Source: Escherichia coli (GTDB lineage: Bacteria > Pseudomonadota > Gammaproteobacteria > Enterobacterales > Enterobacteriaceae). Taken from it: a stretch of 64,000 nt of DNA. The stretch lies in the NCBI RefSeq assembly GCF_017348835.2, contig NZ_CP071375.1. The stretch is one strand, 5' to 3'. The notes under the pieces are model-generated. The model saw only the letters and a program-made list of their open reading frames with translations. It was not told where the DNA came from and ran no database searches. Position 1 is the first letter of the stretch; each line of letters begins with the position of its first letter. Shown piece after piece: positions 50,580-58,595 of the stretch. Made by a program: the position numbers and the translations under genes.

Positions 50580-52454
50580 ATGAAAGGACAAGAAACTCGT
50601 GGTTTTCAGTCAGAAGTGAAACAGCTTCTGCACCTGATGATCCATTCTCTCTATTCCAATAAAGAAATCTTCCTGCGTGAGCTTATCTCTAACGCCTCCG
50701 ATGCGGCGGACAAGCTGCGTTTCCGTGCGCTCTCTAACCCGGACCTGTACGAAGGTGATGGCGAACTGCGCGTTCGTGTCTCTTTCGATAAAGACAAGCG
50801 CACGCTGACCATCTCCGATAACGGCGTGGGGATGACCCGCGACGAAGTGATTGACCATCTGGGGACTATCGCTAAATCCGGTACCAAATCATTCCTCAAA
50901 TCCCTGGGTTCTGACCAGGCGAAAGACAGCCAGCTGATCGGTCAGTTTGGTGTTGGTTTCTACTCTGCGTTTATCGTGGCCGACAAAGTGACCGTGCGTA
51001 CTCGCGCGGCAGGCGAAAAACCACAAAATGGCGTCTTCTGGGAATCGGCTGGCGAAGGTGAATACACCGTTGCCGACATCACCAAAGAAGATCGTGGTAC
51101 TGAAATCACCCTGCATCTGCGTGAAGGCGAAGACGAGTTCCTCGATGACTGGCGCGTGCGTTCCATCATCAGCAAATACTCCGACCATATCGCGCTGCCG
51201 GTAGAGATCGAAAAACGCGAAGAGAAAGATGGCGAAACCGTTATCTCCTGGGAAAAAATCAACAAAGCGCAGGCGCTGTGGACTCGTAACAAGTCGGAAA
51301 TCACCGATGAAGAGTATAAAGAGTTCTACAAACACATCGCCCACGACTTTAACGATCCGCTGACCTGGAGCCACAACCGCGTTGAAGGTAAGCAGGAGTA
51401 CACCAGCCTGCTGTACATCCCGTCCCAGGCTCCGTGGGATATGTGGAACCGTGATCATAAACACGGCCTGAAACTGTATGTTCAGCGTGTGTTCATCATG
51501 GACGACGCAGAACAGTTCATGCCGAACTATCTGCGCTTCGTGCGTGGTCTGATTGACTCCAGCGATCTGCCGCTGAACGTTTCCCGTGAAATCCTCCAGG
51601 ACAGCACGGTAACGCGTAACCTGCGCAATGCGCTGACCAAGCGTGTGCTGCAAATGCTGGAAAAACTGGCGAAAGACGACGCGGAAAAATACCAGACCTT
51701 CTGGCAACAGTTTGGCCTGGTACTGAAAGAAGGTCCGGCGGAAGATTTCGCTAACCAGGAAGCGATCGCCAAACTGCTGCGTTTTGCTTCTACTCATACC
51801 GATTCTTCTGCGCAGACCGTGTCCCTGGAAGACTACGTTTCCCGCATGAAAGAAGGGCAGGAGAAAATCTACTACATCACTGCAGACAGCTATGCGGCAG
51901 CGAAGAGCAGCCCGCACCTGGAACTGCTGCGTAAGAAAGGCATCGAAGTTCTGCTGCTTTCCGACCGCATCGATGAGTGGATGATGAACTATCTGACTGA
52001 GTTCGACGGTAAACCGTTCCAGTCGGTGTCTAAAGTTGACGAGTCGCTGGAAAAACTGGCTGACGAAGTTGATGAGAGCGCGAAAGAAGCGGAGAAAGCA
52101 CTGACTCCGTTCATCGACCGTGTGAAAGCCCTGCTCGGCGAGCGCGTGAAAGATGTCCGTCTGACTCACCGTCTGACCGATACGCCAGCGATCGTTTCGA
52201 CCGACGCGGACGAAATGAGCACTCAGATGGCGAAACTGTTCGCTGCGGCGGGCCAGAAAGTGCCAGAAGTGAAATACATCTTCGAACTGAACCCGGATCA
52301 CGTACTGGTGAAACGTGCGGCAGATACTGAAGATGAAGCGAAGTTCAGCGAGTGGGTAGAACTGCTGCTGGATCAGGCGCTGCTGGCAGAACGCGGCACG
52401 CTGGAAGATCCGAACCTGTTTATTCGTCGTATGAACCAGCTGCTGGTTTCCTGA
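50580..52454 (+). CDS. htpG: Chaperone HtpG (Hsp90), 624 aa
   Basis: ORF-track full length; GHKL ATPase N-terminal motifs ([17 protein letters not shown]). Confidence 0.97.
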
Positions 52455-52457
52455 TGT

Positions 52458-52495
52458 AATGCCGGATGACCTTCGTGTCATCCGGCATTTTTCTT
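52458..52495 (+). terminator. htpG intrinsic terminator (ATGCCGGATGAC...GTCATCCGGCAT followed by T-run)
   Basis: Long inverted repeat immediately after stop, followed by TTTTTCTTTT. Confidence 0.75.
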
Positions 52496-52562
52496 TTCAT
52501 CATCTGCACTTTCCGCAAATTATCTCGCCATTAACCGTTTCAGCCTCAGGTGCCTTTCTTGA

Positions 52563-53279
<717 letters not shown>

Positions 53280-53410
53280 TCAAGCCGCAGCAGATCTGCT
53301 TTCGGGCAGGTCTGCTCATCCACCTCAGGCAATACCTCTCACAGCAATTAGTTCTTCTTCCTCACTTTTCCGCTACAATTATCAACAAGTTGAATCGATA
53401 AGAGGCGGTA

Positions 53411-54373
53411 ATGCGTCAGACTAAAACCGGTATCCTGCTGGCAAACCTGGGTACGCCCGATGCCCCCACACCTGAAGCGGTAAAACGCTATCTGAAACAA
53501 TTTTTAAGCGACAGACGCGTGGTTGATACCTCACGGTTGTTATGGTGGCCATTGCTGCGCGGCGTGATTTTGCCGCTGCGCTCGCCGCGTGTGGCGAAGC
53601 TGTATGCCTCTGTCTGGATGGAAGGTGGCTCGCCACTGATGGTTTACAGCCGCCAGCAACAGCAGGCGCTGGCACAACGTTTACCGGAGACGCCCGTAGC
53701 GCTGGGAATGAGCTACGGCTCGCCATCACTGGAAAGCGCCGTAGACGAACTCCTGGCAGAGCATGTAGATCATATTGTGGTGCTGCCGCTTTATCCGCAA
53801 TTCTCCTGTTCTACGGTCGGTGCGGTATGGGATGAACTGGCACGCATTCTGGCGCGCAAACGTAGCATTCCGGGGATATCGTTTATACGTGATTACGCCG
53901 ATAACCACGATTACATTAATGCACTGGCGAACAGCGTACGCACTTCTTTTGCCAAACATGGCGAACCGGATCTGCTACTGCTCTCTTATCATGGCATTCC
54001 CCAGCGTTATGCAGATGAAGGCGATGATTACCCGCAACGTTGCCGCACAACGACTCGTGAACTGGCTTCCGCATTGGGGATGGCACCGGAAAAAGTGATG
54101 ATGACCTTTCAGTCGCGCTTTGGTCGGGAACCCTGGCTGATGCCTTATACCGACGAAACGCTGAAAATGCTCGGAGAAAAAGGCGTAGGTCATATTCAGG
54201 TGATGTGTCCGGGCTTTGCTGCGGATTGTCTGGAGACGCTGGAAGAGATTGCCGAGCAAAACCGTGAGGTCTTCCTCGGTGCCGGCGGGAAAAAATATGA
54301 ATATATTCCGGCGCTTAATGCCACGCCGGAACATATCGAAATGATGGCTAATCTTGTTGCCGAGTATCGCTAA
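53411..54373 (+). CDS. hemH: Ferrochelatase HemH, 320 aa
   Basis: ORF-track full length; [28 protein letters not shown]. Confidence 0.95.
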
Positions 54374-55329
54374 AGCTGAGCGGTAAAGAACTGAGCGCCG
54401 TCGCGAAGAGCCTCGTCGGCGGTTTTCATCATCCGTGAATAATGCAAAAAGGCGTGCAGTGTGCCTGGGTAGAGTTTGAACTCACAGGGCTGCTGATGCG
54501 CCGCTAACGTCTGGTAAAGCAGACGGCTGTCATCCAGCAGCGGATCGAACTCCGCCCCGGCAATAAAACAGGGCGGAACTTCGCGAGTGAGATCATTATT
54601 AAACAGACAGTAATACGGCGACTCGCGGTCCGCGTCGTTGCTTAAATACGCCTCTTCATACATCTGCAAATCCTGTTGCGTTAAGCCATCCCAGACACCG
54701 CCCAACAGACGACGAGTCACGGAATCCCGTAATCCGTAAAGCCCATACCACAGCAAAACACCCGCAACTTTACCGCAATCGATCTGTTTATCACGCAACC
54801 ACAACGCACTGGCGAGCGCCAGCATGGCACCTGCGGAATCACCGGCAAAGCCAATGCGGGACATATTGATTTGATAATCCTCCACCTGCTGGTGGAAATA
54901 ACAACAAGCAGCCACAATTTCCTCTATCGCTTGCGGAAAACGCGCTTCAGGTGAAAGGGTGTAATCAATACCAATCACCGTACATTGGCTGTAGCTTGCC
55001 AGCAGGCGCATGATGCGATCGTGGGTATCGAGATTGCCGAGAATAAAACCGCCTCCATGCAAATAAAATAGCGTCGCTGGGCTATCTGGCTGCGGACAAA
55101 AGAGACGTGTTTCCACCTGCCCATATTTTGTGGGAACCATGTAAGCTCTGGTTGCCATTTCTGGAGCGCCCGCATTCCAGAATCGGCGCTCAAGCGTGTA
55201 ATACTGTCGTTGCTCAGCAATCGTTCCCGTTGCGGGCCAGGGCGGTAAATCCGGCTGAAGAGTATTCACAACGGTCTTCATTTCAGCAGAAATAAGGTCC
55301 AGAACAGGTAATTTGTTTTCCGGCTTCAT
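54370..55329 (-). CDS. aes: Acetyl esterase Aes (alpha/beta hydrolase, HSL family), 319 aa
   Basis: ORF-track full length; oxyanion motif HGGGF and nucleophile elbow GDSAG. Confidence 0.95.
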
Positions 55330-55480
55330 ACAAAAACTCCTTTCAAATTACGTCATTGTAAGGAACCACTGCCATGAAAATGCGATCCCGCCTGCTGATA
55401 TTGAAACTGGCTGCGTCTCGCGCGCTCCCGTCAGATTGTGTTAACATTCGCCGCTCAGTTAACCACCCGTAAAAACAACC

Positions 55481-56785
55481 ATGAAATTTCCCGGTAAACG
55501 TAAATCCAAACATTACTTCCCCGTAAATGCACGCGATCCGCTGCTTCAGCAATTCCAGCCAGAAAACGAAACCAGCGCCGCCTGGGTAGTGGGTATCGAT
55601 CAAACGCTGGTCGATATTGAAGCGAAAGTGGATGATGAATTCATTGAGCGTTATGGATTAAGCGCCGGGCATTCACTGGTGATTGAGGATGACGTAGCCG
55701 AAGCGCTTTATCAGGAACTAAAACAGAAAAACCTGATTACCCATCAGTTTGCGGGTGGCACCATTGGTAACACCATGCACAACTACTCGGTGCTCGCGGA
55801 CGACCGTTCGGTGCTGCTGGGCGTCATGTGCAGCAATATTGAAATTGGCAGCTATGCCTATCGTTACCTGTGTAACACCTCCAGCCGTACCGATCTTAAC
55901 TATCTACAAGGCGTGGATGGCCCGATTGGTCGTTGCTTTACGCTGATTGGCGAGTCCGGGGAACGTACCTTTGCTATCAGCCCTGGCCACATGAACCAGC
56001 TGCGGGCTGAAAGTATTCCGGAAGATGTGATTGCCGGAGCCTCGGCTCTGGTTCTCACCTCTTATCTGGTGCGTTGCAAGCCGGGTGAACCCATGCCGGA
56101 AGCAACCATGAAAGCCATTGAGTACGCGAAGAAATATAACGTACCGGTGGTGCTGACGCTGGGCACCAAGTTTGTCATTGCAGAGAATCCGCAGTGGTGG
56201 CAGCAATTCCTCAAAGACCACGTTTCTATCCTTGCGATGAACGAAGATGAAGCCGAAGCGTTGACCGGAGAAAGCGATCCATTGTTGGCATCTGACAAGG
56301 CGCTGGACTGGGTAGATCTGGTGCTGTGCACCGCCGGGCCAATCGGCTTGTATATGGCGGGCTTTACCGAAGACGAAGCGAAACGTAAAACCCAGCATCC
56401 GCTGCTGCCGGGCGCTATAGCGGAATTCAACCAGTATGAGTTTAGCCGCGCCATGCGCCACAAGGATTGCCAGAATCCGCTGCGTGTCTATTCGCACATT
56501 GCGCCGTACATGGGCGGGCCGGAAAAAATCATGAACACCAACGGAGCAGGGGATGGCGCACTGGCAGCGTTGCTGCATGACATTACCGCCAACAGCTACC
56601 ACCGTAGCAACGTACCAAACTCCAGCAAACATAAATTCACCTGGTTAACTTATTCATCGTTAGCGCAGGTGTGTAAATATGCTAACCGTGTGAGCTATCA
56701 GGTACTGAACCAGCATTCACCTCGTTTAACGCGCGGCTTGCCGGAGCGTGAAGACAGTCTGGAAGAGTCTTACTGGGATCGTTAA
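55481..56785 (+). CDS. gsk: Inosine-guanosine kinase Gsk, 434 aa
   Basis: ORF-track full length; MKFPGKRKSKHYFPVNARDPLLQQF; PfkB-type C-terminal motif. Confidence 0.95.
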   Translation: MKFPGKRKSKHYFPVNARDPLLQQFQPENETSAAWVVGIDQTLVDIEAKVDDEFIERYGLSAGHSLVIEDDVAEALYQELKQKNLITHQFAGGTIGNTMHNYSVLADDRSVLLGVMCSNIEIGSYAYRYLCNTSSRTDLNYLQGVDGPIGRCFTLIGESGERTFAISPGHMNQLRAESIPEDVIAGASALVLTSYLVRCKPGEPMPEATMKAIEYAKKYNVPVVLTLGTKFVIAENPQWWQQFLKDHVSILAMNEDEAEALTGESDPLLASDKALDWVDLVLCTAGPIGLYMAGFTEDEAKRKTQHPLLPGAIAEFNQYEFSRAMRHKDCQNPLRVYSHIAPYMGGPEKIMNTNGAGDGALAALLHDITANSYHRSNVPNSSKHKFTWLTYSSLAQVCKYANRVSYQVLNQHSPRLTRGLPEREDSLEESYWDR

Positions 56786-56794
56786 GTTATCGTC

Positions 56795-56890
56795 GGTTCG
56801 TAGGCCAGATAAGGCGTTCACGCCGCATCTGGCATTTGGCATCTCGATGCCTGATGCGACGCTGGCGCGTCTTATCATGCCTACATATTT
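56795..56890. repeat. REP/BIME: two inverted REP units after gsk
   Basis: GTAGGCCAGATAAGGCGTTCACGCCGCATCTGGCA and GATGCCTGATGCGACGCTGGCGCGTCTTATCATGCCTAC. Confidence 0.8.
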
Positions 56891-56918
56891 TTCATATTTT
56901 ACATCCGGCAACCACCGT

Positions 56919-58595
56919 TTACCCCGTCACCACCTCACCCGCCGGTGGCGTTTCCAGCAGTTCCAGCATAGTACGGGCAATTTCACGCTCACCCATCACT
57001 ACCTGATTCGCGCCACGTTCGGTGATATACGCCACTTCATCGTCGTAATGGGCGCGGGCGATAATCTCAATATCCGGGTTTTTCGCGCGGGCAGACGCCA
57101 CAATCTCGCCTGCTTCATAACCGTTGGGAATCGTCAGGATCAGCCATTTTGCACATTCCAGATGCGCCAGTTGCATAATTTCTTCGTTCGCCGCATTGCC
57201 CAATACAGCGCGGACCCCACGCTCTCGCAGCTCATCAACACGGGTTCGTGACGTCTCAATCACCACCAGCGGAATATCAGAGGCGAGCAATTTCTCCCCC
57301 AGCAGGCTGCCTACACGACCGTAACCAACCAGTAGCGCATGGTTGCAAATATCCACTGGGATCTGCTTCTCTTCTTCGATTGCCTCTTCCAGCGTCTGCT
57401 CTTCCAGCGTTTCGGTCTTCGCCAGATATTTCTCCAGCAGCGCAAACAGGACCGGGTTGAGCATAATCGACAAAATCGCACCTGCCAGTACCAGGTTCTG
57501 CCCGGCTTGCGGCAACAGATCCAGCGCCATGCCCAGTCCCGCCAGGATAAACGCGAACTCACCAATTTGCGCCAGGCTGGCGGCGATAGTTAATGCCGTA
57601 CGTTGGGAGTGACCAAACAGTCGCACCAGGAAAAACGCGGCTAACGATTTACCAAACAGAATAATCGCCAGCGTCGCCAGCACTGCCAGCGGTTGCTGAA
57701 TCAGAATTAACGGATCAAACAACATCCCGACGGAGACAAAAAACAGCACCGCAAACGCGTCGCGCAATGGCAGCGTATCGTGGGCGGCACGGTGACTCAG
57801 TTCAGACTCGTTCAGTACCATCCCGGCAAAGAACGCACCGAGTGCAAAGGAGACATCAAACAGCTCCACCGCACCAAAGGCAATCCCTAACGCCAGCGCC
57901 AGCACCGACAGGGTAAACAGCTCGCGAGAACCGGTTGCCGCGCTGCGTGCCATAATCCACGGCACCAGACGGCGACCTACCAGCATCATAATGGCGATAA
58001 ACGCGATCACTTTGCCGATGGTGATCCCCATATCGACTGCAAGAGTGGCAAAGCCCACATCGCCCTGTTCCATCATTCCTGCCACTGCGGGCAGCAACAC
58101 CAGCGTCAGAACCATTACCAGGTCTTCCACAATCAACCAACCGATGGCGATTTGCCCACGTTGACTATCAATTAATTGCCGTTCTTCAAGTGCGCGCAGT
58201 AACACCACGGTACTGGCGGTGGAAAGACATAAGCCGAACACGATACCGGTCATTAACGACCAGCCCAGCACGGCAGAGAGCGCCATACCCAGCAGCGTCG
58301 CCACGGCTATCTGGGCGATCGCGCCGGGAATGGCGATGGCCTTTACCGCCATCAAATCCTTCAGCGAAAAGTGCAGACCCACGCCAAACATCAACAGAAT
58401 GACGCCCAGTTCAGCCAGTTCCGGCGCAAGCTTGGTATCGGCAACAAAGCCCGGAGTGAATGGTCCTGCCAGCACACCCGCTAACAGATATCCCACCAGA
58501 GGAGAAATACGTAGTTTATTGGCCAGCATGCCGAGGATAAAGGCGAGCACAAGGCCGCCAACAATGGTGGTGATAAGCGGGGTGGCGTGATGCAT
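56919..58595 (-). CDS. ybaL: CPA2-family monovalent cation:proton antiporter with C-terminal RCK/TrkA-N domain YbaL, 558 aa
   Basis: ORF-track full length; multi-TM N-terminus; Rossmann-like GYGRVG in C-terminal domain. Confidence 0.93.
   Translation of the reverse strand: MHHATPLITTIVGGLVLAFILGMLANKLRISPLVGYLLAGVLAGPFTPGFVADTKLAPELAELGVILLMFGVGLHFSLKDLMAVKAIAIPGAIAQIAVATLLGMALSAVLGWSLMTGIVFGLCLSTASTVVLLRALEERQLIDSQRGQIAIGWLIVEDLVMVLTLVLLPAVAGMMEQGDVGFATLAVDMGITIGKVIAFIAIMMLVGRRLVPWIMARSAATGSRELFTLSVLALALGIAFGAVELFDVSFALGAFFAGMVLNESELSHRAAHDTLPLRDAFAVLFFVSVGMLFDPLILIQQPLAVLATLAIILFGKSLAAFFLVRLFGHSQRTALTIAASLAQIGEFAFILAGLGMALDLLPQAGQNLVLAGAILSIMLNPVLFALLEKYLAKTETLEEQTLEEAIEEEKQIPVDICNHALLVGYGRVGSLLGEKLLASDIPLVVIETSRTRVDELRERGVRAVLGNAANEEIMQLAHLECAKWLILTIPNGYEAGEIVASARAKNPDIEIIARAHYDDEVAYITERGANQVVMGEREIARTMLELLETPPAGEVVTG

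Follow-up and report, generated by a model that had tools for sequence, protein, structure and literature searches.

Genes that meet tail to tail and share a few nucleotides at their 3' ends are a recognized feature of the Escherichia coli chromosome, for which 58 convergent overlaps have been counted (Lillo and Krakauer 2007, Biol Direct, PMC2174442). In that survey, CTAA, TTAA, CTAG and TTAG were named as the tetramers that underlie the 4-bp peak of convergent overlaps, stop–stop overlaps of the form [C/T]TA[A/G] being the modal class, and it is argued that the rho-independent terminators of such genes are forced to lie in the other gene's coding region; terminators of this kind were predicted for 23 of the 116 genes in convergent overlaps. 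At the transcript level, 276 of 370 convergent operon pairs (75%) have overlapping 3' ends, with a mean overlap of 286 nt (Conway et al. 2014, PMC4161252). For Rho-dependent 3' ends, a recurrent arrangement has been described in which a stem-loop without uridines is accompanied by a rut element just downstream (Dar and Sorek 2018, PMC6061677).

The junction between hemH and aes, analysed here within a 64,000-nucleotide stretch of E. coli DNA (hereafter the window; assembly GCF_017348835.2, contig NZ_CP071375.1), has a geometry identical to that of the 4-bp stop–stop class: two genuine genes lie tail-to-tail, overlap by 4 nt, and have opposite-strand stop codons that share the TA of a CTAA tetramer (Table 1). 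We found no structural difference between this junction and the class as presented in the portion of Lillo and Krakauer available to us, where the pair is not discussed individually. Read directly from the sequence, the four shared letters are c, t, a and a, in the context GAG TAT CGC TAA AGC TGA; the TAG that ends aes is the reverse complement of CTA at 54370-54372, and the TA dinucleotide at 54371-54372 is used by both stop codons. According to a script run on the window sequence, hemH would gain 2 codons and aes 57 if this dinucleotide were lost. Of the nine convergent junctions in the window, with gaps of -4, 30, 36, 41, 48, 51, 127, 133 and 211 nt, hemH–aes is the sole overlapping one.

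Table 1. Features at and around the hemH–aes junction; positions are those of the window
Feature	Position	Strand	Basis and remarks
hemH CDS (ferrochelatase, 320 aa)	53411..54373	+	TAA stop 54371-54373; ORF list, Pfam, RefSeq
aes CDS (acetyl esterase, 319 aa)	54370..55329	-	ORF list, Pfam, RefSeq
Shared tetramer CTAA	54370..54373	both strands	4 nt common to the hemH and aes CDSs
15-bp hairpin, candidate stem of an aes intrinsic terminator	54300..54337	-	33 nt past aes stop; hemH codons 297-309
U-rich tail CAUAUUUUUU after the hairpin	54290..54299	-	hemH codons K294 K295 Y296; scan and sequence
Weak hairpin followed by UUUU	54397..54426	+	24-53 nt past hemH stop, in aes codons; z = -2.4
Stem-loop CCGCCCC...GGGCGG without U-tract, and published 3' terminus	54550..54585	+	TRS Supplementary Data 3
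C-rich, G-poor stretch, candidate rut/Rho release zone	54595..54840	+	C/G 1.5-3.2 in 78-nt windows

Both genes are genuinely protein-coding. HemH matches the Pfam family Ferrochelatase (PF00762) over residues 5-318 of 320 (E = 8 × 10−115), and Aes matches Abhydrolase_3 (PF07859) over residues 87-295 of 319 (E = 1 × 10−57), which makes it an alpha/beta hydrolase of that type. Short overlaps are sometimes mis-annotations, and solely for this reason we considered that one CDS end might be wrong and that hemH and aes do not truly overlap. We found nothing in favour of this idea and rejected it, its chances being practically nil: the 3' end of an open reading frame is set by its stop codon rather than by prediction, both proteins are full length with respect to Pfam, their C-terminal residues and the junction itself are kept across genera, and the RefSeq annotations of K-12 and PE164 agree. 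In K-12 MG1655, RefSeq places hemH at 498055..499017 and aes at 499014..499973, with the same 4-nt overlap as in the window, and the identical overlap is carried by strain PE164, which matches the window at 100% identity over 2.2 kb. Of 5426 complete E. coli genomes, 5424 contain this 2.2-kb junction region; the window thus represents E. coli chromosomal DNA, and the overlap is part of its standard annotation. It is a fact of the sequence for which no statistical signal is claimed. The sequence-only reading, which had placed the hemH TAA over the aes TAG on the opposite strand, is thus borne out by the sequence, the reading frames and RefSeq alike, as is its corollary that there is no room for an intergenic terminator: a 4-nt overlap of the coding sequences leaves zero intergenic DNA, and any 3' end that spares a full stop codon must fall within the coding sequence of the partner. 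Its further claim, that each transcript has to end inside the other gene, holds on these logical grounds and, on the hemH side, is supported by published 3'-end data.

Our overall explanation, which we consider likely to be correct, is that of a compact junction in which the termination signals of each transcript are located within the coding sequence of the partner. For hemH, the pertinent observations come from the literature. A plus-strand 3' terminus has been mapped by RNAtag-seq in LB to K-12 499223-499232, with a dominant position of 499229, and annotated 'aes, antisense' (TRS, PMC10687069). The window differs from K-12 by substitutions only and is indel-free in this stretch, such that K-12 coordinates are transferable; position 499229 corresponds to 54585 in the window, 212 nt past the hemH stop codon and a few nucleotides beyond a stem-loop that itself spans 54550-54577. 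Further downstream, a Rho termination region, also antisense to aes, has been assigned to K-12 499332 on the plus strand (Adams 2021, Supplementary file 2, PMC7815308), equivalent to 54688 in the window, or about +315 from the hemH stop, bearing in mind that the Rho score is computed on 800-nt windows and is, therefore, spatially coarse. At this site, the ratio of downstream to upstream reads rose from 24/79 to 522/422 when bicyclomycin was present (Rho score 4.07, p = 6 × 10−10; PMC7815308); hence, read-through at the end of hemH increases on treatment with bicyclomycin, the behaviour by which a Rho terminator is recognized. The composition of the untranslated read-through RNA is rut-like, being C-rich and G-poor from +222 to about +470, a span that takes in the published Rho peak.

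These elements are ordered in the manner described by Dar and Sorek: the hemH 3' end at 54585 follows a stable stem-loop without a U-tract, the C-rich stretch starts about 10 nt further on, and the bicyclomycin-sensitive peak lies about 100 nt beyond that. Unlike the pattern that they described, the hemH arrangement is wholly antisense and within the coding region of another gene. By these published data, hemH has no conserved intrinsic terminator; its transcription continues for 200-320 nt into antisense aes and is ended by Rho when translation ceases to cover the RNA. The stable 3' end, at 54585, lies just beyond a protective stem-loop and a short way upstream of the C-rich, G-poor stretch. 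It could also be that the end at +212 is a product of processing or decay, and not the point of termination.

A more proximal candidate is the weak hairpin and UUUU that follow the hemH stop within aes codons. We rejected it as the main hemH terminator, given its low z-score (-2.4), the free synonymous variation that it displays and the lack of any reported 3' end at this position in either Adams or TRS; it is probably not an efficient terminator. More generally, no synonymous constraint was found for plus-strand structures within aes, where only 2 of 141 codons with an invariant residue are frozen, which fits a sequence-tolerant, Rho-dependent mechanism.

On the opposite strand, a scan of 52300-57000 returned, as its second-ranked terminator-like site, the hairpin and U-rich tail at 54337-54290, which span hemH codons 294-309. 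The stem has 15 pairs, 6 of them G-C, and an 8-nt loop, in keeping with the G+C-rich stem and short loop of intrinsic terminators; its predicted free energy is -23.3 kcal/mol (z = -5.2), and 0 of 200 shuffled sequences were equally stable. The tail, CAUAUUUUUU, has the at least 5 T in 8 that the scan demands of a U-tract, although its first bases are C and A, and in several Citrobacter it is weakened to CAUAUUGCUU. On balance, we take this structure to be the aes terminator, a reading of the sequence that would put the 3' end of the aes RNA about 75-80 nt past the aes stop codon. RNA polymerase transcribing aes would, most likely, stop at the hairpin and U-tract, leaving a 3' UTR of about 80 nt that is antisense to the end of hemH.

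Across 30 genomes, 94.6% of the stem cells are paired, whereas compensatory covariation was not found beyond that seen in shuffled alignments, as is to be expected of a coding region with few changes. In view of this null result, synonymous-site invariance and strand asymmetry were used as tests instead. The former drew on 220 hemH codons that specify an invariant amino acid in 26 genomes, with DNA identity down to 77%. Of these, 17 are also invariant as codons, and they include three consecutive ones, I299 (ATT), P300 (CCG) and A301 (GCG), which form the 3' arm of the hairpin and are the only frozen codons for isoleucine (1 of 10), proline (1 of 20) and alanine (1 of 18) in hemH. The probability of this specific triple being frozen is 3.9 × 10−4, while a run of at least three anywhere occurs in 4.4% of shuffles. 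In genera without a convergent aes, CCA, CCT, CCC, GCT or GCA are used at these hemH sites, and the stem is absent in most. With regard to strand, the minus-strand RNA folds more stably than its plus-strand complement in every one of the 30 genomes, at a mean of -21.1 versus -14.0 kcal/mol, because the variable wobble pairs are G-U on the former and A-C on the latter, and it is only on the minus strand that the hairpin is followed by a U-rich tail.

These results also bear on the alternative that the structure in codons 297-309 is not the aes terminator, but instead owes its conservation to hemH itself, through mRNA stability or translation, preferred codon use or conserved amino acids, or is a neutral relic, with aes transcription being ended diffusely by Rho. 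The absence of covariation would accord with this, as would the fact that ATT, CCG and GCG are preferred codons; since the frozen codons are the preferred ones in a single related clade, they may stem from phylogenetic inertia or from constraint acting on the mRNA of hemH. Moreover, Trabulsiella guamensis (L021:3463-3571) retains the hairpin in the absence of aes, with gsk directly after hemH, and, between +66 and +170, the RNA read through from aes is rich in C and poor in G (C/G 1.5-2.3), which might provide a rut site. Mapped aes 3' ends at the hairpin are likewise missing from the published tables: the curated Term-seq list of Adams 2021 contains no minus-strand 3' end at K-12 4988xx-4993xx, TRS 2023 has no hemH-annotated terminus among the E. 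coli termini listed, and an aes 3' end was not found in the TERMITe 2025 supplement. The absence of an aes 3' end from these tables may be explained by low aes expression. We nevertheless judge this alternative to be unlikely: it does not readily account for the frozen proline, alanine and isoleucine codons sitting adjacent to each other within the stem, for the 7 kcal/mol by which the minus-strand fold is the more stable in all 30 genomes, or for the restriction of the U-rich tail to that strand.

Intrinsic terminators that act in both directions are reportedly present between convergent genes in SEnd-seq work. In a bidirectional terminator of this type, one hairpin with an A-tract on one side and a U-tract on the other serves both strands. 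The hemH–aes locus resembles such cases in being a convergent pair with a hairpin near its junction, but we rejected a bidirectional terminator on geometric grounds, as there is zero intergenic DNA and the two genes share no hairpin beyond their stop codons; the hairpin at 54300-54337 precedes the hemH stop and lacks a plus-strand U-tract, and so cannot terminate hemH. A search of Rfam (E ≤ 1) found no known RNA family at the junction.

A HemH scan with one genome per species returned 72 loci, and among these a convergent aes directly 3' of hemH is confined to Escherichia, Salmonella, Citrobacter and one Trabulsiella strain; in Enterobacter, Pluralibacter, Pantoea and others, hemH is followed by gsk on the same strand. 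Wherever the convergent aes is intact, the spacing at the junction is between -11 and +2 nt, and in 20 of 26 related loci it is -4 with a [C/T]TAA tetramer, CTAA and TTAA being the two forms in the relatives. The C-terminus of Aes varies, giving proteins of 319-324 aa, yet the -4 geometry recurs. To judge from these comparisons, the 4-nt overlap seems to have arisen anew in more than one register, with CTAA in E. coli and TTAA in Salmonella; the junction is one that has been remodelled in evolution but stays tight. As to the tails themselves, Aes ends in ...FFTAQL in E. coli and in ...FFIARIKMLR in Salmonella, and ...QQLDGAQR also occurs among the Salmonella and Citrobacter variants; spacings of -4, -10, 0 and +2 were seen in two Salmonella and seven Citrobacter loci.

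In some Escherichia, the aligned sequences have aes in decay. Escherichia sp. E1V33 (L008:1380-1840) has an internal deletion that removes residues of about 84-256, and a mutation has turned the shared CTAA into CCAA, which makes hemH longer by two codons. In the type strain of E. albertii, NBRC 107761 (L007:3450-4407), aes is a frameshifted pseudogene with a 12-nt deletion at its C-terminus. T. odontotermitis strain 01 (L032) carries an aes-like gene, divergent in sequence (53% identity), whose overlap with hemH is 11 nt, and in two other Trabulsiella, gsk is directly after hemH and the hairpin in the hemH codons is retained.

If the ends that we assign to both transcripts are right, the two mRNAs would be complementary over roughly 54290-54585, or about 300 nt, close to the genome-wide mean of Conway et al. 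The proposal in the sequence-only reading that the transcripts would carry antisense 3' UTRs is supported by the plus-strand 3' end 212 nt into aes, by the Rho region and by the listing of the pair as an excludon; the convergent-transcription interference that it offered as the other outcome is a possibility. The listing in question is Table 1 of the ExcludonFinder study, where hemH–aes is one of 165 convergent excludons of MG1655 (NAR 2025, PMC12288877), the requirement being that the transcripts overlap in 50% or more of 58 RNA-seq samples, scored from overlapping coverage alone. Published data thus place the pair among convergent excludons as defined by transcript overlap, whereas the original excludon concept is one of mutually exclusive expression, and it is for overlap alone that hemH–aes is documented. 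The same MG1655 list contains two other pairs from within the window, ybaY-ybaZ and ybaA-pdeB (PMC12288877).

A stronger interpretation is that the overlap has been selected, rendering the expression of hemH and aes mutually exclusive through head-on collision of RNA polymerases, cleavage by RNase III of the roughly 300-nt RNA duplex, or both; if true, haem synthesis would be coupled to Aes activity. Apart from the excludon listing, this could draw on the tightness of a junction kept over three genera, and on the proposal that head-on collisions aid termination at convergent genes (bioRxiv 10.1101/2022.10.23.513370). We regard it as improbable. The listing scores only overlapping coverage, and overlap of 3' ends is so widespread, at 75% of convergent operon pairs, that selection is not implied. 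A literature search found no locus-specific test for hemH–aes, and the two genes have unrelated functions. Furthermore, aes is dispensable, being a pseudogene in E. albertii, partly deleted in E1V33 and absent from Enterobacter and Pantoea, with hemH unchanged. Lastly, the read counts of Adams suggest that hemH is weakly transcribed (79 reads per 800 nt); with coverage this low and the aes 3' end undetected in the tables searched, collisions should be rare, and any regulatory consequence of collision or duplex cleavage is probably small. It is highly improbable that both proposals hold together, namely that I299-P300-A301, with T305-P306-E307, are held synonymously as the aes terminator and that the overlap of ~300 nt makes the genes a reciprocal regulatory pair; were it so, a terminator would be conserved within the coding sequence of its partner across Escherichia, Salmonella and Citrobacter.

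We conclude that hemH–aes is an ordinary, evolutionarily old and maximally compact tail-to-tail junction of functionally unrelated genes. Its overlap is real and was already known and published, as were the class to which it belongs, the overlap of its transcripts and the Rho site; only the probable footprint of the aes terminator in the synonymous sites of hemH appears to be a new, and modest, detail. The locus is of little import beyond book-keeping and opens no new question. It is, nonetheless, a textbook case of how convergent genes cope with zero intergenic space, one transcript apparently relying on an intrinsic terminator written into the codons of its partner, where it would leave frozen synonymous sites, and the other depending on Rho after translation ends. 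For annotation pipelines, the point to note is that 3' UTRs and terminators may fall within coding sequences; likewise, synonymous recoding of either hemH or aes could alter the termination of its neighbour.

Several features of the flanking DNA merit comment. Upstream of hemH, the spacer that separates it from adk (53280-53410) is 131 nt long in the window and 235 nt in K-12 (L002:2321-2555). The K-12 spacer has a different sequence right after adk, including a G+C-rich palindromic repeat, CCCCTCGCCCCCTCGGGGAGAGGGTTAGGGTGAGGGG, which we take to be boxC-like, as well as a hairpin at the position to which the adk 3' end maps (497941). The window form, matched over at least 80% of its length in 2506 of 5424 E. 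coli genomes, has an 11-bp hairpin without a U-tract, and the adk terminator may, therefore, differ between lineages. A second Rho termination region is located at the start of hemH, at K-12 498060 (+), or about 53416 in the window (score 4.02, p = 1 × 10−17; Adams 2021, PMC7815308), and in the same data, hemH coverage rises about 5-fold with bicyclomycin, from 79 to 422 reads. This suggests that Rho-dependent termination of read-through or leader transcription arriving from adk keeps hemH expression in check. A scan of 52300-57000 for the sigma-70 consensus gave 0 sites against a shuffle expectation of 4.7 ± 2.2, a result that is uninformative on promoter strength; for adk, hemH, aes and gsk, it may fit promoters that are weak or depart from the consensus.

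Beyond aes, gsk and ybaL form another convergent pair, which, unlike hemH–aes, has a spacer (133 nt), and this contains a match to the Rfam family naRNA4 (CssrE) at 56803-56881 (71.4 bits) that scores on both strands. Presumably, the match represents a REP-derived palindromic element. The strongest terminator-like site in the region, at 52458-52489 on the plus strand, combines a 13-bp stem (AATGCCGGATGAC...GTCATCCGGCATT) with TTTCTTTTCA directly after it, and is positioned in the spacer between htpG and adk, some 130 nt ahead of where adk is annotated to start.
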